Of a DNA stretch of 64,000 bases, positions 1 to 32,451 are shown piece after piece. This DNA comes from Escherichia coli. GTDB lineage: Bacteria > Pseudomonadota > Gammaproteobacteria > Enterobacterales > Enterobacteriaceae. The notes under the pieces were generated by a model. It had not been told where the DNA came from. It made no database searches and saw only the letters and a program-made list of their open reading frames with translations. The DNA is taken from the NCBI RefSeq assembly GCF_002854065.1, contig NZ_CP024147.1. One strand, given 5' to 3'. The position numbers were made by a program, and so were the translations under genes. Numbering within the stretch: position 1 is the stretch's first letter; every line of letters begins with the position of its first letter.

Positions 1-1313
1 CAGAGCAGGTCGATGCTGCTGTGCGCGCGGCAGATGCAGCATTTGCCGAATGGGGGCAAACCACGCCGAAAGTGCGTGCGGAATGTCTGCTGAAACTGGC
101 TGATGTTATCGAAGAAAATGGTCAGGTTTTTGCCGAACTGGAGTCCCGTAATTGTGGCAAACCGCTGCATAGTGCGTTCAATGATGAAATCCCGGCGATT
201 GTCGATGTTTTTCGCTTTTTCGCGGGTGCGGCGCGCTGTCTGAATGGTCTGGCGGCAGGTGAATATCTTGAAGGTCATACTTCGATGATCCGTCGCGATC
301 CGTTGGGGGTCGTGGCTTCTATCGCACCGTGGAATTATCCGCTGATGATGGCAGCGTGGAAACTGGCTCCGGCGCTGGCGGCAGGGAACTGCGTAGTGCT
401 TAAACCATCAGAAATTACCCCGCTGACCGCGTTGAAGTTGGCAGAGCTGGCGAAAGATATCTTCCCGGCAGGCGTGATTAACGTACTGTTTGGCAGAGGC
501 AAAACGGTGGGCGATCCGCTGACCGGACATCCTAAAGTGCGGATGGTGTCGCTGACGGGCTCTATCGCCACCGGCGAGCACATCATCAGCCATACCGCGC
601 CGTCCATTAAGCGTACTCATATGGAACTTGGTGGCAAAGCGCCAGTGATTGTTTTTGATGATGCGGATATTGAAGCAGTGGTCGAAGGTGTACGTACATT
701 TGGCTATTACAATGCTGGACAGGATTGTACTGCGGCTTGTCGGATCTACGCGCAAAAAGGCATTTACGATACGCTGGTGGAAAAACTGGGTGCTGCGGTG
801 GCAACGTTAAAATCTGGTGCGCCGGATGACGAGTCTACGGAGCTTGGACCTTTAAGCTCGCTGGCGCATCTCGAACGCGTCAGCAAGGCAGTAGAAGAGG
901 CGAAAGCGACAGGGCACATCAAAGTGATCACTGGCGGTGAAAAGCGCAAGGGTAATGGCTATTACTATGCGCCGACGCTGCTGGCTGGCGCATTACAGGA
1001 CGATGCCATCGTGCAAAAAGAGGTATTTGGTCCAGTAGTGAGTGTTACGCTCTTCGACAACGAAGAACAGGTGGTGAACTGGGCGAATGACAGCCAGTAC
1101 GGACTTGCATCTTCGGTATGGACGAAAGATGTGGGCAGGGCGCATCGCGTCAGTGCACGGCTGCAATATGGTTGTACCTGGGTCAATACCCATTTCATGC
1201 TGGTAAGTGAAATGCCGCACGGTGGGCAGAAACTTTCTGGTTACGGCAAGGATATGTCACTTTATGGGCTGGAGGATTACACCGTCGTCCGCCACGTCAT
1301 GGTTAAACATTAA
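1..1313 (+). CDS. patD: gamma-aminobutyraldehyde dehydrogenase, 5-prime truncated by window edge
   Basis: ORF 21..1313 (430 aa) with aldehyde dehydrogenase motifs (ELGGKAP, catalytic Cys context GQDCTAA); reading frame is open to the window start, so the N-terminus lies upstream. Confidence 0.9.
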
Positions 1314-1323
1314 GTTAGATGTT

Positions 1324-1356
1324 AGTGGCTGTTATAGGACGGCCACTATCGTTTTA
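1324..1356 (+). terminator. rho-independent terminator-like hairpin after patD
   Basis: Inverted repeat AGTGGC...GCCACT followed by a T-run (cgtttt) just after the patD stop. Confidence 0.5.
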
Positions 1357-1522
1357 GGTTCTGAGTTTAATGGCGGTTAAGTATTAGAATGATTACATTA
1401 ATAACTAGCGTAAAAATTAGGCTAAATGTTTGATGGCGATTTTTCATCCTGTCACAGTTGATTAGCATAAGGCTTTAGAGTATCGTTATTAAACTAATAA
1501 TTTATAAGTAGAAGTATTAACA

Positions 1523-2332
1523 ATGAAAGTTCAATTGTACAAATTCACGGAAGATAAAAATAAAACCCTTACCTTCAGATGGACGAAAAAACACTTTGAG
1601 TTTTGTATGGATAATAAAATCTTTTTAAATCATAAGGGGAAGAAGTCGTATAAAGAAAGGAATTTATTTCTTTTCTCAAAAGGTGACAAGATAACAATTG
1701 AAGATAATGTTATTGCTGAAGAATATTCAACAATGCCTGTAAAAAATTTCTCCAGTGTCGGCGCTTTTTCATTTCCGACCTGTCATTTTTCAGGGAATAT
1801 ACGTATAGGTCGATTTTGTAGTATTGCATCAAATGTAAAAATAATGGGTGGAAATCATCCTTTGAATCGTTTTACTACTCACATGATGACTTATAACGGT
1901 GAATTTGATAAGTTTGCTATGAGTGAGTTTGAACGTAGCTGGACATTGAAACCATTCATTACCAAACCTGAAAATCCGATTATAGGAAATGATGTCTGGA
2001 TAGGAAATGATGTTGTATTGAAAGGTGGCATCGCAATAGGTGATGGTGCTGTTATTGCTGCCAATTCCGTTGTTACCAAAGATGTGCCCCCATATGCCAT
2101 AGTTGCAGGAGTTCCTGCAAAAATAATCAGATTTAGGTTTGATTCAAATGTTATTGATGAACTGTTGAGAATAAAATGGTGGAATTATAACTACTCAGAT
2201 CTTCCGGATAATAACAAGTGTGATGATATAAATTATTTTGTTGAAGAGATGAATCGATTGATATCAAATGGAAATATTCAAGAGAGGGACTATAAAAAAT
2301 TCAATCTTTCTGAGGTATTCAGAGGCCTATAA
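1523..2332 (+). CDS. Vat/XAT-family hexapeptide-repeat acetyltransferase (streptogramin A / chloramphenicol acetyltransferase-like)
   Basis: 269 aa ORF; left-handed beta-helix hexapeptide repeats (IGNDVWIGNDVVLKGGIAIGDGAVIAANSVVTKDVPPYAIVAGVPAKIIRFRF), GGNH putative catalytic His segment and C-terminal IKWWNY motif, all typical of Vat(D)/CatB-type xenobiotic acetyltransferases; gene lies in a visibly AT-rich stretch. Confidence 0.75.
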   Translation: MKVQLYKFTEDKNKTLTFRWTKKHFEFCMDNKIFLNHKGKKSYKERNLFLFSKGDKITIEDNVIAEEYSTMPVKNFSSVGAFSFPTCHFSGNIRIGRFCSIASNVKIMGGNHPLNRFTTHMMTYNGEFDKFAMSEFERSWTLKPFITKPENPIIGNDVWIGNDVVLKGGIAIGDGAVIAANSVVTKDVPPYAIVAGVPAKIIRFRFDSNVIDELLRIKWWNYNYSDLPDNNKCDDINYFVEEMNRLISNGNIQERDYKKFNLSEVFRGL

Positions 2333-2678
2333 TTATCTGTTTTGCATGATAAATGGGCAAGATAACCAGGGCGGGGTTTGCAATTTCAATGGGGCAGCGT
2401 CATCAAGGAGGTTGCAAACATCCTGCCATGCATATACTTTACGCCATCTTTTTATATTTGCGTTATTCCTTGAAAGTATAAAGCATTTATAGACTCCCGC
2501 GCGTATAAAGTATTCATGATAGAAAAATGTGAAAACAAGATTCCCTTTGAGTCAGTAAGCTGTTTGTATAGACGACAGTAGGGGGATGTTTTCTACTCAT
2601 TTCAATGTAGATGCCAGCAAAAAGAAGTAAATATTAAGGATAATGTTGTAAACCTGGAGAGTATGAGAAGATCTTGCG

Positions 2679-2709
2679 TACTGTCAGAGAGTTGATTTCT
2701 CTGACAGTA
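2679..2709 (-). terminator. hairpin downstream of yncL
   Basis: Perfect inverted repeat TACTGTCAGAGAG-ttgattt-CTCTGACAGTA immediately 3-prime of the yncL stop; no clear U-tract. Confidence 0.4.
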
Positions 2710-2733
2710 CGTGCTGCGTGCAAAATCACTACA

Positions 2734-2829
2734 TCAAATAAACCAGCCAAATCTCATAGAGATAAGAGTAAACAAACCAACAGCAGCAAAGACATTTATC
2801 AGTACTACAGTTCTACTGGAAACATTCAT
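2734..2829 (-). CDS. yncL: small membrane protein YncL (31 aa)
   Basis: Minus-strand ATG at 2829 to TGA at 2734 encodes MNVSSRTVVLINVFAAVGLFTLISMRFGWFI, a single-TM small protein matching recalled YncL; absent from the ORF track because it is under 60 aa. Confidence 0.7.
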   Translation of the reverse strand: MNVSSRTVVLINVFAAVGLFTLISMRFGWFI

Positions 2830-3023
2830 TTTTGCCACCTTTTATCATTGCCCCTATGTGTATAGTACGGGTTAAGAAAATCCGCAATAATACTCATTCT
2901 GAAGATGGATAAGGGCAAGTTGCTGTTTGATGTTTTTTTCTCAAACCGGTTAAAAAACTTGATGCACGTCAAAAAATGACGCATATTTGCGCGCGTTTTA
3001 TTCATCTGGCTGGACGCCCGTAC

Positions 3024-3197
3024 ATGTCTCTCTATCAACATATGCTTGTTTTTTATGCGGTTATGGCAGCAATCTCATTTCTTATCACCTGGTTTCTTTC
3101 TCACGATAAGAAACGCATCCGTTTCTTAAGCGCCTTTCTGGTGGGGGCAACATGGCCGATGAGTTTCCCGGTGGCGCTGTTGTTTTCACTGTTTTAA
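3024..3197 (+). CDS. ortT: orphan toxin OrtT (YdcX), small membrane protein
   Basis: Internal Met of ORF 2976..3197 gives the 57 aa MSLYQHMLVFYAVMAAISFLITWFLSHDKKRIRFLSAFLVGATWPMSFPVALLFSLF. Confidence 0.8.
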   Translation: MSLYQHMLVFYAVMAAISFLITWFLSHDKKRIRFLSAFLVGATWPMSFPVALLFSLF

Positions 3198-3282
3198 ATC
3201 TTACTCACTGGCTTGACGGCACCACGCAGACTTATATCATTTGGATGAATCGATAAATTTCACAAGTGGCTAAGGAGAAAGT

Positions 3283-3516
3283 ATGTCGCATCTGGATGAA
3301 GTCATCGCGCGCGTGGATGCCGCGATTGAAGAGAGCGTCATTGCCCATATGAACGAATTATTAATCGCCCTGAGCGATGACGCGGAGTTAAGTCGGGAAG
3401 ATCGCTACACCCAGCAGCAACGTCTGCGCACAGCGATCGCCCATCACGGTCGCAAGCATAAAGAAGATATGGAAGCTCGCCACGAACAGTTAACCAAAGG
3501 CGGCACCATCCTGTGA
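3283..3516 (+). CDS. ydcY: uncharacterized protein YdcY
   Basis: 77 aa ORF preceded by AAGGAGAAAG ribosome-binding site; position and size as in K-12. Confidence 0.8.
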   Translation: MSHLDEVIARVDAAIEESVIAHMNELLIALSDDAELSREDRYTQQQRLRTAIAHHGRKHKEDMEARHEQLTKGGTIL

Positions 3517-3966
3517 TTAAAATGAGCGTCTGGCCACCAGCCAGGCGCCAACCACAAGTAAAATTGCGCCACAAATTGGGCCGATCAACGCCCGTAGTGG
3601 TACGCCATGGCTGCGGAAGATATCCAGCACCAGACCGCCAATCAGCTGGCTGGCGACCAATACCGCAATAGTTGTCGCCGCTCCCACATTCTGATATCCG
3701 CTGATACTGGCGAAGACAAAAAACGATCCCAGCAAGCCAGGTATAAGTGTCCACCAGCGCACGCTGGACACCAGTTCGCCAAACCCCGCCATACCTTGTT
3801 TAAACCATAAAATAGAAACAAAGAGCACAATCCCCACCAGTGAGTTCAGCAACATGGCGATGAGAATGGTAGAGGAGGTCTGGGTGATGCGCACCATCAG
3901 CGTGTTCTGGACTACCAGACCAATTCCGGCGGCAATCAAAAAGGCAAGGGTGAGCGACTGATTCAT
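3517..3966 (-). CDS. ydcZ: inner membrane protein YdcZ (DMT-like)
   Basis: 149 aa polytopic hydrophobic ORF; 4-bp overlap with mnaT. Confidence 0.85.
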   Translation of the reverse strand: MNQSLTLAFLIAAGIGLVVQNTLMVRITQTSSTILIAMLLNSLVGIVLFVSILWFKQGMAGFGELVSSVRWWTLIPGLLGSFFVFASISGYQNVGAATTIAVLVASQLIGGLVLDIFRSHGVPLRALIGPICGAILLVVGAWLVARRSF

Positions 3967-4481
3967 CCAATCACGTCCGGTTCAGTGCGTTCGTCGAGTT
4001 GCAACTGCATAAATGTCAGATCCAGCCAGCGCCCAAATTTAGTGCCCACCTGCGGCATTTGTGCGGTGACGACAAATCCCAGCGACTGGTGCAGATGCAG
4101 CGAGGCCTGATTTTGCGATTCGATCCCGGCGACCATGACATGCTTCCCGCAATCCCGCGCTTCATCAATCAATCGGCTTAACAATTTACGCCCCAGACCT
4201 TTGCCCTGATGATCGGGATGGACATAAACCGAATGTTCCACGGTATGGCGAAAACCATCGAAACTACGCCAGTCGCCAAATGAGGCATATCCCGTCACTA
4301 CGCCATCTTCTTCACTTACCAGCACCGGATAACCTGCTATGGTCCGCGCTTCAAACCAGGCAATGCGGTTATCTGCATCCACCGTTTGGTCATTCCAGAT
4401 AGCCGCCGTATACAACACGGCGTGGTTATAAATTTCCGCAATGGCAGCACAGTCGGCTTTGCGGGCAAAACGGATGGACAT
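3963..4481 (-). CDS. mnaT: GNAT N-acetyltransferase MnaT (YncA)
   Basis: Internal start MSIRFARKADCAAIAEIYNH; GNAT motifs (HPDHQGKGLGRKLL); the ORF track's 250 aa form is an N-terminal over-extension. Confidence 0.85.
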   Translation of the reverse strand: MSIRFARKADCAAIAEIYNHAVLYTAAIWNDQTVDADNRIAWFEARTIAGYPVLVSEEDGVVTGYASFGDWRSFDGFRHTVEHSVYVHPDHQGKGLGRKLLSRLIDEARDCGKHVMVAGIESQNQASLHLHQSLGFVVTAQMPQVGTKFGRWLDLTFMQLQLDERTEPDVIG

Positions 4482-4661
4482 GTCTGGCCTCAATAAAATA
4501 ATGATGATGATGTTATCAATACTATCGAAAACAGCCCGAAGCAACGGATTCCTCGATGAAATTATTGCGTGTTGCAGAGGGGATGTGACGGCTGCAAACA
4601 AAACCAATCCCGTGAGCCTGCTACTATTGATGGATTCATGCCAAAAGCACAGGAGAGCATT

Positions 4662-5699
4662 ATGGGGCAACAAAAGCAGCGTAATCGACGTTGGGTTCTG
4701 GCCTCGCGTCCACATGGCGCACCAGTTCCGGAGAATTTCCGTCTTGAAGAAGATGATGTCGCCACACCGGGTGAAGGACAGGTGTTACTGCGCACAGTTT
4801 ATTTGTCCCTGGACCCGTATATGCGTGGACGTATGAGCGATGAGCCATCTTATTCACCGCCGGTTGATATTGGCGGCGTGATGGCCGGCGGTACGGTGAG
4901 CCGTGTCGTGGAGTCGAATCATCCTGATTATCAGCCTGGCGATTGGGTGCTGGGCTACAGTGGATGGCAGGACTATGACATATCCAGTGGTGATGATCTG
5001 GTGAAACTTGGCGATCATCCGCAAAATCCATCGTGGTCGCTGGGTATGCTGGGGATGCCAGGCTTTACCGCTTATATGGGGCTGCTGGATATCGGTCAGC
5101 CTAAAGAGGGCGAAACGTTGGTGGTAGCTGCGGCGACAGGACCAGTGGGGGCGACGGTGGGGCAAATCGGCAAACTTAAAGGTTGCAGAGTGGTGGGGGT
5201 AGCCGGTGGCGCGGATAAATGCCGCCATGCTACCGAGGTGTTAGGCTTCGATGTTTGCCTTGATCACCACGCGGACGATTTTGCCGAACAACTGGCGAAA
5301 GCGTGCCCAAAAGGTATTGATATCTATTATGAAAACGTGGGCGGTAAGGTATTTGATGCAGTGCTACCATTACTTAATACATCTGCGCGCATTCCCGTTT
5401 GTGGCTTAGTGAGCAGCTATAACGCTACAGAGCTACCACCCGGTCCGGATCGTTTACCCCTGTTGATGGCAACGGTGCTGAAAAAACGTATTCGCTTGCA
5501 AGGGTTTATTATCGCCCAGGATTATGGTCATCGCATCCATGAGTTTCAGAAGGAGATGGGGCAATGGGTGAAAGAGGATAAAATCCACTACCGCGAAGAA
5601 ATTACTGACGGTTTAGAGAATGCGCCACAGACGTTTATCGGCCTGCTGAAGGGTAAAAACTTCGGCAAAGTGGTGATCCGCGTGGCGGGTGATGATTAA
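4662..5699 (+). CDS. curA: NADPH-dependent curcumin/dihydrocurcumin reductase (MDR superfamily)
   Basis: Start MGQQKQRNRRWVLASRPHG after AGGAGAG ribosome-binding site; 345 aa; medium-chain dehydrogenase Rossmann motif AAATGPVGATVGQIGK. Confidence 0.85.
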   Translation: MGQQKQRNRRWVLASRPHGAPVPENFRLEEDDVATPGEGQVLLRTVYLSLDPYMRGRMSDEPSYSPPVDIGGVMAGGTVSRVVESNHPDYQPGDWVLGYSGWQDYDISSGDDLVKLGDHPQNPSWSLGMLGMPGFTAYMGLLDIGQPKEGETLVVAAATGPVGATVGQIGKLKGCRVVGVAGGADKCRHATEVLGFDVCLDHHADDFAEQLAKACPKGIDIYYENVGGKVFDAVLPLLNTSARIPVCGLVSSYNATELPPGPDRLPLLMATVLKKRIRLQGFIIAQDYGHRIHEFQKEMGQWVKEDKIHYREEITDGLENAPQTFIGLLKGKNFGKVVIRVAGDD

Positions 5700-11625: not shown

Positions 11626-12599
11626 TGCGCTCCCTGATTGCTTTAATGAAAAAAGTCTTTTATGTCGCCATGAACAATGTTTATTCATCCTGGCGATGAC
11701 AAGATTCACCATTATTCTTTATGGGTATAACTGTCGGCGCAGAATCCTACCTTTTATCGTGTAACGATGCAAAATAATCCCACTATAAATGTGAGGGGAT
11801 AAAGGCAGCTGGCGACAAAATAGCAACCTGATGAAATTATGACGGAAACAACCACTATTGGTTCGATGATACTCGACTGTCGCCGACTCTTTAGCCAATC
11901 GTTTGTCGCTCTGAGCGCAAGTGGTTGCAGTGGACACTGGTGTGGTTGGTTTTCGCTGATTATCATTGAATAGTGAGGGACCAGCGCATGAGTGGTTTCA
12001 GGGGTAATACGCCAAATACCAATACAATTGCTGATTAGAAATGCCAGTTGTCGAGGTCACAGAAAGTGCAAAAAATGTAAGAGTGATATCGGGTGACAAT
12101 TGTGCTATTGCCCAGCAGAAATTTTTTAAATTAGTACTGTTCCAGGGGCATTACAAACCTTAAAACATTACTTCAATATAATTAATGTGTATATCATTCT
12201 TGATATTAATTTATGAAGTGAATTTGATATATTCCGAATTCTTAATTTACATTACTAATGTATGGGACATAACGTTAAGATGGCTATGTGCAGATTAAGA
12301 TATCAGGGTGGGGCGGTAGCGTTTACAGATATTAATTAATTGATGAGAGCTATGTTATCCGCACAATCATTTACATCAGCTATTGATATTGAAGATAGAT
12401 AAATAAATATGCTGAGAATTAATGTTAAGGAATCGTAATGGGAAACTTTGATAACTTGCTTTGATTTCATTCTCTATGAAGATGATGTCATCAACACTGC
12501 ATAAAGTGGAAATATTGAACATCAAAGAGAACCATATTTAATAAATAATAACAGAGCGTTTGTGTTTATCTGAAAAATATCATTTCCAGGAGGTAGGAT

Positions 12600-13130
12600 A
12601 TGTCATTAAGGAGAATGACATCTGGTGAATTAGCATTGGCCAGATCGATTTTTGAAAATACAATTGATTATAGTAAGGTATGGATCCACAATGAAAAATA
12701 TTTGCCGGGTCAAGGGGAAAGAACAGCGATGACCCCAAACGGGGAAATGTATTATCCTGATGCTGTTTATAGTTCAGATTATTCATCGCAAACAATGCCT
12801 GGTGATCGTGAAACAGTAGCAGGTGCTTCTCACTTGTTTATTCATGAAATGATGCATGTTTGGCAATATCAGAAAGGGTATGCAGTTAAGTTGCGTGGTT
12901 TATTTTCCTGGGCGGCAAATTATCATTACGATCTTAATTTACAGTCAATTTCTTCTTATTCCATGGAACAACAAGCATCTATAGTTGCTGATTATTGGCT
13001 ATTGATTAACTATGGACTGGTGGCTGATTTGGCAAATGTTAACTATGTAGGTGATACAACTGAATCCGTTAACACTCTATCGGAAAAATACAAAAAGGTG
13101 CTTAATTTATTTCCTGCGGGTGTCATATGA
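12600..13130 (+). CDS. HExxH zincin-like protein, DUF4157-like (putative effector/toxin)
   Basis: 176 aa; strong AGGAGGTAGG ribosome-binding site; no signal peptide; motif string IDYSKVWIHNE...ERTAMTPNGEMYYP...HLFIHEMMHVWQYQ resembles my recollection of the DUF4157 consensus (DLSxVRVH...AFTxG...LLAHELxHVxQQ); AT-rich context. Confidence 0.55.
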   Translation: MSLRRMTSGELALARSIFENTIDYSKVWIHNEKYLPGQGERTAMTPNGEMYYPDAVYSSDYSSQTMPGDRETVAGASHLFIHEMMHVWQYQKGYAVKLRGLFSWAANYHYDLNLQSISSYSMEQQASIVADYWLLINYGLVADLANVNYVGDTTESVNTLSEKYKKVLNLFPAGVI

Positions 13131-13483
13131 AGAGATTCTTTTTGTTTTTCTTTTTGTCGGGATGCACTGTTGGTGATTATGTTCGCCCATTGTTACCCGG
13201 TAATGTATATTTACAAGATGGACGGGTTTGTTCAAAACCAGACGATGGAGGTATTATTTCAAATTATATTTTATATGAAGGTAAATATGGCAATGCAATA
13301 AAGCTGAAAAGAGTAACAGGTCAGTTCGACCCCGTATGTATTGACATAAGTGAGCTATCTTCAGATGTTATTTATATCGGGCAATATATGCTCTCTTCCG
13401 GAAGTAAAAAAGAATACTATGGTTTTAGAATAATTAGATCCGGAGTACGTATTTTAAGACTTGATGATAACCATATCAAATAA
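13127..13483 (+). CDS. small lipoprotein, translationally coupled partner (putative immunity/inhibitor)
   Basis: 118 aa; ATGA start/stop overlap with the upstream gene; lipobox FLSGC (signal MKRFFLFFFLSGC). Confidence 0.55.
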   Translation: MKRFFLFFFLSGCTVGDYVRPLLPGNVYLQDGRVCSKPDDGGIISNYILYEGKYGNAIKLKRVTGQFDPVCIDISELSSDVIYIGQYMLSSGSKKEYYGFRIIRSGVRILRLDDNHIK

Positions 13484-13703
13484 CAGATTAAAAATTTTAT
13501 TAGTTTCATTAATGTGCTTTAGGTGAATGTTTTCACCAGGTTAACATGACGGTGCATTCTTCAAGGCATATATGGTTGATAGTATCTTCAGTAGCTCGCA
13601 TAAGTATTGAGATGTTTTACGCCAGTTACGAATATATTGCATATTTTATTCTCTGTAAGATTTCTTATTAGCACTTAGCCATTTCTAGTTAAAAGGATTA
13701 ATT

Positions 13704-15191
13704 ATGAGTTTTGCAGCTACAGATTATCCATCCGGCGCACTAACTGGATCGGGTACACATAACGTGACTTTGAGCGGCAGCGCAGTTCCTGATGGAATGT
13801 TACTGTTTGCAAGCTTAGGGGGTACAGAAACAGTAGGGGAACTATTTACTTATTCTATTAAATTAAAAACTCCTGACATCCTGAACCTGGGCTATGTTTC
13901 CCCCGCCGCAAACCTGCAGCTCAAACCGATGGTGGGCAAAGATCTGTGCGTCCATATCGAACTGGATGGCGGCGGAAAACGTTATATCAGCGGGCTGGTG
14001 ACGGCGGCACGCGTGGCTGGTCATCAAGGACGTTCGGTGGTGTATGAACTGCGGCTCGAACCGTGGTTAAAAATACTGACCCACACTAGTGACTACAAAG
14101 CGTTTCAGAATAAAAACGTGGTGGACATCCTGGATGAGGTACTGGATGAGTATCCCTGGCCAGTGGAAAAACGGCTGGTGGAAAATTATCCGACTCGCGC
14201 CTGGCAGATGCAGTACGGTGAAACAGATTTCGCTTTTATTCAGCGCCTGATGCAGGAGTGGGGTATCTACTGGTGGTTTGAGCACAGCGAGAACAGTCAC
14301 ACGTTAGTGCTGGCTGATGCCATTAATGTCCACAAGGCATGCGCAGATTCGCCGCTGGTGTGTTATTACCAGAAAGGGCTGAAACTGGACAAGGAGTTTA
14401 TCCATACCATCACAGCAAATGAAAGTCTGCGCAGCGGACAGTGGGTGCTGAATGATTTCGACTTTATGAAGCCGCGTTCACTGCTGAAGAGCACCGTGGC
14501 TAATCCGCGTGAAACCGGCCTTGCTGAATATGAGCACTACGAATGGCCGGGAGATTACTTCACAAAGAGTGAAGGTGAAATGCTGACACGCATTCGCATG
14601 GAAGAACAGCGTAGCCCCGGTAGTCGGGTACAGGGCAGCGGCAATATTCGTACCCTGATGACAGGTTTTACCTTCACCCTGGAAAACTATCCGACAGCCG
14701 AAGTGAACCGGGAATATCTGCTGGTACAGACCACGCTATTTATACAGGACAATGCGCAACACAGCGGCCAGGAGCAGCATTTCTCTTACTCAACCAGCTT
14801 TGAACTGCATCCCACCAGCGAAGTTTACCGCCCACAACGAACCCTGAGCAAACCCCACACTAAAGGCCCGCAGAGTGCCATCGTCACCGGCCCGGCAGGG
14901 CAGGAAATCTGGACAGATAAATATGGCCGGGTGAAAGTTCAGTTTGGCTGGGATCGTTACGGTAAGAATGACGAAAACAGCTCCTGCTGGGTCCGTGTCA
15001 GTTATCCGTGGGCTGGTAAAGGATTCGGTGGCATTCAGATCCCGCGTATTGGTCAAGAAGTACTGGTGGATTTCAAAAACGGTGATCCGGATTTACCGAT
15101 AATCGTTGGGCGTACCTACAACCAGGACACCATGCCACCGTGGGGACTACCTGAACGGCGTGTACGACAGCACGGGGCACCTGCTGCGTGA
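13704..15191 (+). pseudogene. vgrG: vgrG, N-terminal portion only (T6SS spike protein), truncated
   Basis: 495 aa ORF containing the VgrG gp27/gp5 signature ([39 protein letters not shown]); the frame ends shortly after this motif, well short of a full-length VgrG. Confidence 0.75.
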
Positions 15192-15298
15192 GTTTGCTTA
15201 CGACGAAAACCACTGCATGACGCTGCACCGCCAGCCGGGCGGCGAAGGGTATTATTACCAGTGGGGCTGGTATGACGGTCCGGATGATGCGGCGTGGC
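15145..15298 (+). other. Rhs/YD-repeat-like remnant fused out of frame to the vgrG end
   Basis: Alternative frame reads [44 protein letters not shown], a YD-repeat-like pattern; short and without a proper start. Confidence 0.35.
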
Positions 15299-31350: not shown

Positions 31351-32451
31351 TTAGAACTGATAGGTAATGCCCGTAGCGACGATGTTATCGGTGCGAATAT
31401 CTACGGCACGGGTAAAGTCGCTTTCATCAATCAGGTTGATTTTATAATCAACATAGGTCGACATATTTTTGTTGAAGAAATACGTCGCACCAACGTCGAT
31501 ATACTCAATCATGTCCTGGTCGCCGTAGCGGCCCAGATCTTTGCCTTTCGATTTCAGGTAAGCGAGTGAGGGGCGCAAGCCGAAGTCGAATTGATATTGC
31601 GCCACCACTTCAAAACTTTGTGCTTTGTTAGAAATATAACCATCGCCATAGGTGGTCATGTTTAATGTTTCAGCGTAATTAGCTGCAAAGTAGATGTTGT
31701 TGGCATCATATTTTATACCTGTAGCCCACAGTTCTGCATTCTTACCGGAGGCATTGAGAGGATTAGCAGCGGCTCTTTCCTGCGCATTTGTCCGATCGGA
31801 TTTGGTATATACCGCACCGATACCAAAGCCATCATAAACATAAGTTGAGGAGATACCGAAACCGTCACCGTTGGCACGCGTGTAGTCAGCACCATAAAGA
31901 TGACTGTTGTCAGTACGTTCATTTTTGCCTTGATATTGCGCGGCAAAGTTCAGCCCTTCAATTAAGCCAAAGAAATCGTAGTTGCGATAGGTTGCCACAC
32001 CGGTGGTACGGTATGTCATGAAGACATCTTTCTGACTCCAGGTATCGCCACCAAATTCTGGCAACATATCAGTCCATGAACCAATGTCATAGCCGACACC
32101 GTAGTTACGGCCATAGTCCAGAGAGCCAAATTCACTAATTTTTAAACCAGCATAGGCCAGACGGGTCTTGTTGCCGCGCGAGCCGTTGGCTTCATCGTTA
32201 TAGCCTTTAAAATCATATTCCCAGTGACCAAAACCAATCATTTGATCATTGATTTGCGTTTCTCCTTTAAAGCCGAGACGGGCATAAGTTTTATCACCAT
32301 CGTCACGCTTATCATCAGTAAAATAACGTAGAGCGGTAACCTTGCCATAAAGGTCGAGTTTATTACCATCCTTGTTATAGACTTCGGCAGCGTGTGCTAC
32401 GTTCGCAGCTAACAAACCAGTTACAACCACCGCAACTATTTTTAATTTCAT
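31351..32451 (-). CDS. OmpC/OmpF-family general porin, intact (corresponds to the yddL position)
   Basis: 366 aa; signal peptide [38 protein letters not shown]-terminal ...GITYQF; classical 16-strand porin pattern. Confidence 0.85.

Follow-up and report, generated by a model that had tools for sequence, protein, structure and literature searches.

What is the AT-rich DNA that separates patD from yncL in some Escherichia coli chromosomes, and does the acetyltransferase that it encodes act on antibiotics? We addressed this in a window of 64,000 nucleotides of the E. coli contig NZ_CP024147.1. The gene already carries a RefSeq annotation as "CatB-related O-acetyltransferase", and a first-pass annotation of the window had compared its product with streptogramin A (Vat) and CatB-type acetyltransferases. 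In the literature, we found no paper mentioning the protein (WP_000867989) and none that links a virginiamycin acetyltransferase to E. coli phylogroups.

Boundaries and composition of the islet

In the K-12 derivative XL1-Blue, patD and yncL are separated by 96 bp, compared with 1420 bp (1314-2733) in the window. When this empty site is aligned to the window and the sequence is read directly, the extra DNA comes to 1324 bp (1315-2638), which bears out the earlier claim of a segment of more than 1 kb at the patD-yncL junction that is absent from K-12. The description of this segment as AT-rich and compositionally foreign holds as well. Its GC content is 0.34 against about 0.53 in the flanks; along the sequence, GC drops to 0.28-0.40 over approximately 1300-2900, with patD at about 0.53 and the region beyond 3300 at about 0.55. 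The features of the locus are as follows.

21..1313, + strand: 3' part of patD (aminobutyraldehyde dehydrogenase), an open reading frame that the identical record NZ_CM128593.1 annotates as patD
1311-1313, + strand: patD stop codon TAA, belonging to the core flanking gene and outside the islet
1305..1314: left repeat copy AAACATTAAG, the left islet junction from the K-12 alignment, which includes the patD stop codon
1315..2658: AT-rich islet, made up of the 1324 bp missing from empty sites and 20 replaced nucleotides
1323..1358, + strand: terminator-like hairpin from a consensus scan, consisting of an 11-bp stem (1323-1348) and a T-rich tail 3' of it
1474..1501, + strand: sigma-70-like promoter candidate (TTTAGA, 16-nt spacer, AATAAT), 22 nt 5' of the ATG
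1523..2332, + strand: coding sequence of the XAT-class acetyltransferase (269 aa, left-handed beta-helix; RefSeq WP_000867989.1)
2333..2638, no strand: non-coding islet tail, GC 0.38
2629..2638, no strand: right direct-repeat copy AAATATTAAG
2677..2711: perfect 14-bp inverted repeat CGTACTGTCAGAGA / TCTCTGACAGTACG, outside the islet and common to K-12
2734..2829, - strand: yncL, a 31-aa stress-response membrane protein and core flanking gene, from its open reading frame and the annotation of the identical record

The two repeat copies form an imperfect 10-bp direct repeat (9/10) that bounds the extra DNA. The 20 nucleotides at 2639-2658 differ too, reading GATAATGTTGTAAACCTGGA in occupied sites and GATAATATTGCAGATCGTAA in empty sites, so the event that separates the two haplotypes is a replacement of approximately 1344 bp for 20 bp. 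Due to this difference at the right junction, neither a simple insertion nor a simple repeat-mediated deletion reproduces the other haplotype, and both were rejected. The junctions are identical within all four occupied and within all four empty genomes inspected.

The hairpin lies directly after the patD stop codon, within the islet, and is kept with one substitution in a second E. coli allele of 95.5% identity; in strains with the islet, it probably terminates patD. The inverted repeat on the other side is likely to act as a bidirectional terminator between patD and yncL. The promoter candidate shows 9/12 consensus matches, a score no commoner here than in shuffled sequence, and thus constitutes weak evidence. 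No Rfam match was found between 1200 and 3400 at E<=1, the non-coding tail included, and this tail does not resemble the loci of Citrobacter or Cedecea.

The islet has no recognisable mobility machinery. It holds a single open reading frame with no transposase or integrase gene, and we found no terminal inverted repeats and no IS- or MITE-type ends. Together with the imperfect repeat, the 20 replaced nucleotides and the one fixed chromosomal site, this sets it apart from insertion sequences, transposons, integron cassettes and integrative islands. Plasmid carriage was rejected, as the sole full-length match in PLSDB (NZ_CP141089.1) is a mislabelled 4.9-Mb chromosome. No close relative was found in 50,697 phage genomes, and interpretation as a phage gene was rejected because only PHROG 16087, of unknown function, matches. 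A role as a defence system was likewise dismissed, given that PADLOC returned no match.

Distribution, age and selection

The islet is present in about a fifth of complete E. coli genomes (1158/5426), always at the same chromosomal site, and is missing from approximately 79%. At least 80% of its length is held by 1148 of the 1158 matching genomes, and in a few strains the acetyltransferase gene is interrupted by IS1. The gene is found in strains of several O-serotypes and also in the Shigella flexneri chromosome. No representative genome of another Escherichia species yielded it in a search of one genome per species with exact 8-residue peptide seeds, and on this basis ancestral presence in the genus was rejected.

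Comparison of two E. coli alleles gives an islet identity of 95.5%, with 13 gap positions across the islet, against 96.0% and 96.8% in the flanks. As the islet has diverged to about the same extent as its surroundings, it is old at this site. The first-pass annotation was right about the extra DNA, but its term "insertion" is too simple for a long-standing presence/absence polymorphism that has been maintained in E. coli. Furthermore, the AT content of the islet exceeds that of every enterobacterial host examined, and the similarity that it shares at the nucleotide level with the loci of Citrobacter and Raoultella starts approximately 85 bp 5' of the ATG.

The frame of 269 codons is unbroken in alleles that differ by 4.5% in nucleotides and across genera. 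Between the two E. coli alleles, with 12 synonymous and 6 non-synonymous changes, the dN/dS ratio is 0.12; between the E. coli gene and Citrobacter it is 0.05-0.08. An intact frame in diverged homologues, combined with low dN/dS, indicates that the open reading frame is not a chance occurrence, and purifying selection at a ratio of about 0.1 indicates that the gene is functional. As a whole, this is a real, ordinary accessory gene, and the locus illustrates cleanly how a single gene can persist for a long time as a presence/absence polymorphism.

Architecture of the acetyltransferase

The intact 269-aa frame contains the motifs that had been quoted for a hexapeptide acetyltransferase, with GGNH at residues 109-112 and IGNDVWIGNDVV at 154-165, as well as GDGAVIAANSVV and KWWNY. 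Residues 1-60 form an N-terminal extension, followed by a hexapeptide-repeat left-handed beta-helix domain (approximately 60-205) and a helical C-terminal region (206-269). A loop at 113-150 is inserted into the beta-helix directly after the catalytic His, with a helix predicted at 127-136; it aligns with the insert of Vat(D) and is about 10 residues longer. The N-terminal extension noted earlier in comparison with Vat(D) is borne out, since residue 61 of the query pairs with Vat(D) residue 28, and at the other end the protein continues for approximately 20 residues beyond Vat(D).

A direct alignment to Vat(D), proposed earlier as a check of the active site, pairs His112 with the catalytic His82, the position that corresponds to His135 in ApmA. 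This residue is invariant in 34 homologues, and all catalytic and structural invariants are kept in the E. coli protein. Helices are predicted at 208-217, 236-248 and 262-268, in agreement with the C-terminal alpha-helical region regarded as a criterion of the xenobiotic acetyltransferase (XAT) class (PMC7885111). The nearest solved structures are those of Vat(D), VatA and CatB. Sequence comparison and predicted secondary structure thus place the protein among the XAT-class left-handed beta-helix acetyltransferases with a conserved His.

Relationship to Vat, CatB and ApmA

Membership in the individual resistance families was assessed with the curated NCBIfam cut-offs. The islet protein scores 125.3 bits against Vat (NF000311, cut-off 300), 106.3 bits against CatB, the type B chloramphenicol O-acetyltransferases (NF000490, cut-off 350), 83 bits against ApmA (NF000084, cut-off 550) and 131 bits against TIGR03308 (cut-off 202), and thus falls short in every case. 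Neighbour joining with 200 bootstraps places the protein outside a clade of Vat and CatB that has 100% support. The Vat motifs G-x-Y-S-Y-Y and N-G-A-N-H-R-M-D-G are absent from the protein and replaced by EEYSTM and GGNHPLNRF. The resemblance to Vat and CatB on which the first-pass annotation relied therefore extends to the fold, the closest structures and the catalytic His, but not to family membership. By these sequence measures the protein lies outside the Vat and CatB resistance families, and its reading as an antibiotic-resistance determinant is unsupported.

We nevertheless considered whether the enzyme modifies an antibiotic or another xenobiotic, be it by low-level O-acetylation of chloramphenicol or streptogramin A or as an ApmA-like enzyme that has moved to another drug class. 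The closest solved structures all belong to drug-modifying XATs, whose catalytic His and architecture are conserved here. In most hosts the gene is solitary and preceded by a promoter-like region, as is often the case for resistance and detoxification genes. ApmA illustrates that an added N-terminal region, by reshaping the substrate pocket, can retarget the fold (PMC7885111). The extension of the islet protein is unlike the ApmA N-terminal domain, however, and both the scores far below the curated thresholds and the replacement of the Vat/CatB-specific YSYY and H-R-x-D motifs argue against a drug substrate. Neither a real plasmid nor a deposited phage genome was found to carry the gene. Where it does occur in PLSDB, in the record NZ_CP141089.1, no annotated feature lies under the match and neither AMRFinderPlus nor RGI calls a resistance gene there. 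Moreover, E. coli is intrinsically insensitive to streptogramins and would gain little from Vat activity, and genotype-phenotype surveys would probably have picked up chloramphenicol resistance if approximately 21% of E. coli had it. Taken together, we regard a drug-modifying role as doubtful. Although the generic name "CatB-related O-acetyltransferase" and the Vat resemblance invite a resistance reading, the gene does not belong in counts of Vat or CatB determinants.

An XAT-like subclass that includes Orf11

Among characterised enzymes, the highest score in like-for-like BLASTP was obtained for Orf11 of Campylobacter jejuni (143 bits, 40% identity over 195 aa), against 112 bits for Vat(D) and 101 for CatB3; the C. 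lari homologue reached 167 bits. Orf11 is a characterised sialate O-acetyltransferase (PMC8319020, PMC3513307). The protein P0271 sits in the orf11 slot, with the gene order cgtA-cgtB-cst-neuB-neuC-neuA-[gene]. Houliston et al. (2006, J Biol Chem 281:11480) are reported to have identified Orf11 as the SOAT encoded by lipo-oligosaccharide loci of classes A and B. The first-pass annotation had named sugar or capsule O-acetyltransferases as the best homologues that would speak against its reading. This is half the case: a sugar O-acetyltransferase does lead the characterised BLASTP matches, but Orf11 is itself XAT-like and the deep part of the tree is unsupported.

The islet protein carries the Orf11-type signature H-P-x-x-R-[FIV]-[ST]-T...T-Y together with GAFS[FY] and a homologous C-terminal extension. 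C-terminal extensions were compared by hhalign, giving probabilities of 83-95% (83% and E 9e-6 against Orf11), whereas the N-terminal extensions of the islet protein and Orf11 gave 1.5%, at which homology is not demonstrated. The signature is also common to many uncharacterised proteins and accordingly marks a broad subclass rather than sialate specificity. Approximately 700 clusters at the 50% identity level match the islet protein with E<1e-30, a figure that counts similarity and not carriers of the motif. Orf11 is the only experimentally characterised member of the subclass found in this analysis.

In the tree, support is 81% for an Enterobacterales clade and 100% for a Campylobacter clade, with every node that joins the two below 50%. 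Distances in the core alignment are 1.23 to Vat(D) and 1.24-1.42 to the Campylobacter enzymes, so that the islet protein is equally distant from both. With this deep branching unsupported, the acceptor is not assignable from the tree. The islet protein belongs to an uncharacterised Enterobacterales clade of the large XAT-like subclass that carries the H-P-x-x-R-[FIV]-[ST]-T...T-Y signature after the catalytic His. The same generic annotation is found on the Campylobacter sialate O-acetyltransferase and on the islet protein, which makes the label uninformative on substrate. As a widespread and easily cloned member from E. coli, the islet gene would be a good starting point for finding out what enzymes of the subclass acetylate.

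Genomic neighbourhoods

The E. coli gene lies among patD, yncL, ortT, ydcY, ydcZ, mnaT and curA, and none of the nine features flanking it is annotated for sialic-acid synthesis. Linkage to sialic-acid synthesis or sialyltransferase genes is present in C. jejuni and C. lari but not in E. coli. In E. coli and five other Enterobacterales the gene is solitary, with no glycan genes nearby; such placement is typical of detoxifying or resistance acetyltransferases. Other relatives lie within glycan loci or at cargo positions next to prophage tail-fibre genes, surroundings that speak for the link to the sugar enzyme. An Enterococcus relative is located in a cell-wall polysaccharide locus, and the one in Kluyvera lies directly 3' of P2-like tail-fibre genes. 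A relative in a Providencia prophage adjoins a GT52 glycosyltransferase and is the sole homologue with such a neighbour; this GT52 protein and the adjacent 250-aa protein have no NCBIfam or PDB match. Among distant relatives, fusions to GT8 in one protein and to ATP-grasp in another give a mixed and weak picture.

Proposed function

By analogy with solved XATs, the islet would encode a soluble acetyl-CoA-dependent O-acetyltransferase, composed of the left-handed beta-helix, the inserted loop and the helical C-terminus, and assembled as a homotrimer with active sites at the subunit interfaces. Acetyl-CoA would occupy a tunnel between neighbouring beta-helices, and His112 would act as the general base on the acceptor hydroxyl. 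The acceptor pocket may be formed by loop 113-150 of one subunit and the beta-helix face of the next, possibly with a contribution from the N-terminal extension. For the acceptor, our best guess is not streptogramin A or chloramphenicol but a carbohydrate hydroxyl, either on a sugar or on an intermediate of a cell-surface glycan; it follows from Orf11 being the subclass member with a characterised activity. To our knowledge, all solved XAT-class structures act on small molecules, which counts against a glycan acceptor, as does the spread of the gene over several O-serotypes. The full explanation that we favour, namely an old, horizontally acquired, single-gene accessory islet encoding an XAT-class enzyme that is neither Vat nor CatB and uses a sugar-type acceptor, has in our judgement about an even chance of being right in all its parts.

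A more far-reaching proposal, which we consider unlikely, is that the Enterobacterales clade has an unrecognised acceptor. The enzyme could then be a silent resistance enzyme for a drug class new to this fold, as ApmA was for apramycin, present in approximately 1 in 5 E. coli. Alternatively, it could be a serotype-independent enzyme that O-acetylates a conserved envelope glycan (LPS core or ECA) and thereby alter phage or immune recognition, a version that fits the prophage tail-fibre cargo positions in Kluyvera and Providencia.

The enzyme might also be a housekeeping-type detoxifier of a non-antibiotic small metabolite or free sugar, comparable to LacA or Maa and with no link to surface glycans or drugs. 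A soluble, solitary, serotype-independent protein under purifying selection is consistent with such a role, its best NCBIfam score is to a phosphonate-metabolism family of small-molecule hexapeptide transferases, if below the cut-off, and the conserved Arg116, adjacent to the catalytic His, could accommodate a small anionic substrate. However, similarity to LacA and Maa is confined to approximately 50 beta-helix residues, no conserved metabolic neighbour appears in any genome examined, and prophage cargo positions and glycan-locus homologues are unexpected for a metabolic enzyme; a detoxifying role therefore seems improbable. Least of all do we expect a leftover of foreign DNA, silent or in decay, that no longer has a function in E. 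coli: its low GC may suggest H-NS silencing, its promoter match is weak, IS1 interrupts it in a few strains and most genomes are without it, but the intact and selectively constrained frame, the near-complete islet in almost all carriers and the preserved invariants make this very improbable.

Comparison with known systems

ApmA, an aminocyclitol N-acetyltransferase (PDB 7jm0), shares with the islet protein the XAT class, the possession of an additional N-terminal region and a similar length (274 aa), with an E-value of 6e-23; the difference lies at the N-terminus, where the extension fails to match the ApmA domain. The CatB group (CatB2, CatB3, CatB8, PaXAT and V. cholerae VCA0300) is separated by the score of 106 bits against a cut-off of 350 and by the sequence around the His, which reads AGNQGHRYDW in CatB and GGNHPLNRF in the islet protein. 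Moreover, the islet gene is neither an integron cassette nor a called resistance gene.

The Vat enzymes (Vat(D), PDB 1khr; VatA, PDB 4hur) are the best solved-structure matches by both sequence and fold, with 34-37% identity over 170-204 residues and with the GNDVWIG and WW motifs and the XAT architecture in common. The islet protein differs in lacking the YSYY motif and the H-R-M-D-G loop, in having approximately 33 additional N-terminal and 20 additional C-terminal residues as well as the longer insert, and in being encoded on the chromosome and never on a plasmid.

For Orf11, the E. coli gene is without annotated neuBCA or sialyltransferase neighbours, and at about 40% identity the acceptor is not transferable from one enzyme to the other. 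The two proteins nevertheless resemble each other in length (276 and 269 aa), in the longer inserted loop, in the WWxYxFxD motif and in the PGAP name that they share. They also have in common the active-site motifs H-P-x-x-R-[FI]-[ST]-T...T-Y and GAFS[FY] and the long C-terminal extension, none of which they share with Vat or CatB.

The patD-yncL islet is a replacement

The AT-rich islet between patD and yncL stands out from its surroundings, with a GC content of 0.28-0.40 over ~1300-2900 against ~0.53 in patD and ~0.55 past 3300. Alignment of occupied and empty sites places 1324 bp of extra DNA at 1315-2638, while the patD-yncL spacing in the K-12 derivative XL1-Blue is only 96 bp. This bears out the extra AT-rich segment of more than 1 kb described in the first-pass annotation, and the motifs quoted there are all present in the 1523-2332 ORF.

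Features of the islet and its flanks
21-1313: patD 3' end, stop codon within the 1305-1314 repeat copy
1305-1314: direct repeat, left copy AAACATTAAG, including the patD stop codon
1323-1348: terminator-like hairpin supplied by the islet, just 3' of the patD stop
1474-1501: weak promoter-like site within the islet
1523-2332, + strand: intact acetyltransferase ORF, 269 aa
2629-2638: direct repeat, right copy AAATATTAAG, an imperfect match to the left copy
2734-2829, - strand: yncL

To characterize the junctions, four occupied sites (the window, strain 100416, MS14387 and GF43) were compared with four empty ones (K-12, O157:H7, ATCC 11775 and S931B). All four empty sites have one junction in common, and all four occupied sites another. 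Despite flanks that are up to 99.4% identical, 8 of the 20 positions to the right of the repeat (2639-2658) differ between the four occupied and the four empty sites (GATAATGTTGTAAACCTGGA versus GATAATATTGCAGATCGTAA). Because of these differences, a plain insertion would not convert the empty into the occupied haplotype, nor would a plain repeat-mediated deletion convert the occupied into the empty one. The change is therefore a replacement of 20 nt by ~1344 nt (1315-2658) rather than a simple indel, which supersedes the insertion originally proposed. The islet showed neither a transposase or integrase gene nor terminal inverted repeats or a tRNA target, and no Rfam family matched within 1200-3400.

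Two further AT-rich patches were observed in the window. The first, at 12000-15200 (GC 0.34-0.38), contains the two features below, together with a small hypothetical protein, followed by a SymE toxin fragment and an ISAs1 transposase (ydcC).

Features annotated in the identical record NZ_CM128593.1
12600-13130: Rhs-family protein ORF
~13704-15152: truncated T6SS Vgr pseudogene

The other patch, at 28600-32450 (GC 0.33-0.37), contains a pseudogene fragment and two genes with leucine-rich-repeat domains, and adjoins a porin gene annotated ompC (31351-32451), downstream of narU-narZ-narH-narW-narI. At mnaT, the mechanically called ORF (3963-4715, - strand) has 250 aa and the annotated gene 172 aa (3963-4481); translation of the upstream extension is unlikely.

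Distribution and history of the islet

With the islet alone as megablast query, 1158 of 5426 complete E. coli genomes proved to be carriers, and patD and yncL adjoin it in every one. Identity is at least 99% in 945 of them; a second allele, at ~95.5%, is present in 207. Real plasmid carriage was not found, the sole full-length "plasmid" match being a 4.9-Mb record, clearly chromosomal. PLSDB files this E. coli record (NZ_CP141089.1, 4.94 Mb) as a plasmid, and no annotated feature lies under the islet match. No close relative was found in deposited phage genomes, and scanning bacteria with one genome per species gave no copy in any other Escherichia species. The identical protein sequence occurs on at least 1000 public contigs, some with Shigella flexneri given as the source. 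A "Collinsella sp." MAG contig (JAIJJM010000727.1, 1576 bp) encodes a protein 100% identical to that of E. coli and in all likelihood reflects a bin contaminated with E. coli DNA.

Compared with MS14387, the window has 95.5% identity in the islet, 96.0% in the patD flank and 96.8% in the downstream genes. The islet has thus diverged together with its flanks, and is either old at this site or moves with them through homologous recombination. In the one-genome-per-species scan, amino-acid identity was highest for relatives in Citrobacter (79-80%), in a MAG of Raoultella (77%) and in Enterobacter sp. Ag1 (70%). At the nucleotide level, the Citrobacter and Raoultella loci resemble the islet from ~85 bp before the ATG to near the stop codon, which suggests that what they share is the gene together with its promoter region. 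The gene is AT-richer than its host in all enterobacterial genomes examined (GC 0.33-0.44 versus 0.47-0.59).

The two E. coli alleles differ by 12 synonymous and 6 non-synonymous changes (dN/dS 0.12), and dN/dS against Citrobacter is 0.05-0.08; the gene is under purifying selection. IS1 disrupts it in a few E. coli strains. NZ_AP021893.1 (1009-2594) has an IS1A within the gene, both halves of which PGAP calls pseudogene fragments, and in NZ_CM176588.1 26% of the islet is left, adjoining an IS1.

The protein belongs to the XAT class but not to curated resistance families

Pfam reports hexapeptide repeats only. The best match among PDB sequences is Vat(D) (6.6e-30, query 61-230), and other leading matches are VatA, several CatB enzymes, ApmA and PaXAT; those to the sugar O-acetyltransferases LacA and Maa are confined to ~50 residues of the beta-helix. 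The alignment to Vat(D) proposed for locating the catalytic histidine pairs His112 with His82. An AlphaFold model (34 homologues, pLDDT 88) predicts a left-handed beta-helix with a helix-containing insert at 113-150 and three C-terminal helices, the canonical XAT architecture (PMC7885111). Together, these matches, the aligned histidine and the modelled architecture assign the protein to the XAT class of acetyltransferases. For its first 60 residues, no counterpart could be detected in any solved structure.

The protein lies outside the curated Vat, CatB and ApmA resistance families, scoring 125 bits against a cut-off of 300, 106 against 350 and 83 against 550, respectively. Even the top-scoring model, TIGR03308, reaches only 131 bits against 202. 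Of the earlier Vat/XAT-family reading, an XAT-like gene in an acquired segment is retained and membership of Vat or CatB is not. There is no support for treating the gene as a resistance determinant of the Vat or CatB type, and it should not be counted among them.

Relatives and their genomic contexts

Database searches gave numerous relatives, 255-290 aa long and comparable in layout; ~700 clusters formed at 50% identity score E<1e-30. Identities are 77% in Citrobacter, 71% in Cedecea, 55% in Providencia, 53% in Kluyvera, 46-50% in Pectobacterium, Rahnella and Dickeya, and 36-40% in several Firmicutes and Campylobacter.

The gene is solitary in E. coli, Citrobacter, Cedecea, Rahnella, Apirhabdus, a gammaproteobacterium and Mammaliicoccus, and its neighbours differ from one to the next. 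In Kluyvera it lies immediately 3' of P2-like tail-fibre and tail-fibre-assembly genes, in Providencia rettgeri at a prophage end adjoining a GT52 glycosyltransferase, and in Enterococcus thailandicus within a cell-wall polysaccharide locus. Distant relatives are fused to a GT8 LPS-glycosyltransferase-like domain in one case and to ATP-grasp domains in another. For part of the subclass, these contexts point somewhat towards modification of surface glycans; they say nothing about the E. coli gene itself. The P. rettgeri homologue (55% identical) sits in a cargo region between tail-fibre gene and integrase, which also holds the GT52 gene, a 250-aa protein of no assigned function, and either DarT/NADAR (DarTG-like) genes or a reverse transcriptase with an AAA_21 ATPase (retron-like).

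In Campylobacter lari, the homologue belongs to the operon cst-neuB-neuC-neuA-[gene], and for its C. jejuni counterpart P0271 (276 aa) the gene order is cgtA-cgtB-cst-neuB-neuC-neuA-[gene]-GT2-waaF. This is the orf11 position of lipo-oligosaccharide locus classes A and B, and we equate P0271 with Orf11 by gene order and length rather than by sequence comparison with the published enzyme. According to PMC8319020, citing Houliston 2006, Orf11 is a characterised sialate O-acetyltransferase acting on C-9 of terminal sialic acid; the enzyme was put to use in PMC3513307.

The islet gene is already annotated in public genomes, its product (WP_000867989.1) being named "CatB-related O-acetyltransferase" in RefSeq; we found no paper mentioning this protein. 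Since the P0271 gene (7001-7831), in the sialate O-acetyltransferase slot, is publicly named only "CatB-related O-acetyltransferase" or "antibiotic acetyltransferase", the name carries no substrate information. The generic name recurs at another glycan locus, the E. coli ST131 capsule-locus variant KL112, for an ORF beside a second kpsS (bioRxiv 10.64898/2025.12.15.689991).

Proposed mechanism and acceptor

The enzyme would act as a trimer using acetyl-CoA, with His112 as the putative general base and an acceptor pocket formed by the 113-150 loop, perhaps together with the N-terminal extension. For the acceptor we favour a carbohydrate hydroxyl, giving this reading about an even chance. The active-site signature is shared with a sugar O-acetyltransferase. 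The distribution of the islet is old, chromosomal and single-locus. An antibiotic or xenobiotic acceptor is unlikely, and a non-antibiotic small metabolite quite improbable. That the gene has no function is very hard to credit, given the purifying selection on it.

Comparison with Orf11, Vat and CatB

Compared by BLASTP on a single scale, the E. coli protein reaches 167 bits with the C. lari homologue and 143 with Orf11 (40% over 195 aa), compared with 112 for Vat(D), 101 for CatB3, 95 for Vat(E) and 90 for CatB2. A neighbour-joining tree (200 bootstraps) recovers Enterobacterales (81%), Campylobacter (100%), Firmicutes (97%) and Vat plus CatB (100%), with the branching order among these four clades not supported, and core-alignment distances place Vat(D) as far from the E. 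coli protein as the C. lari enzyme. Profile comparison of the isolated extensions backs homology of the Enterobacterales C-terminal extension, at a probability of 83% with Campylobacter and 95% with Firmicutes; for the N-terminal extension, homology to Orf11 is unsupported (1.5%), with 37% for Firmicutes.

Discrete characters are more telling than tree or distances. Orf11 and most other non-Vat/CatB sequences resemble the E. coli protein in carrying M-G-x-x-H-P-x-x-R-[FIV]-[ST]-T-x-x-x-T-Y after the catalytic histidine, a GAFS[FY] motif, an insert ~10 residues longer and W-W-x-Y-x-[FY]-x-D. In contrast, Vat and CatB have Y-S-Y-Y, I-M-x-G-x-x-H-R-x-D and the shorter insert.
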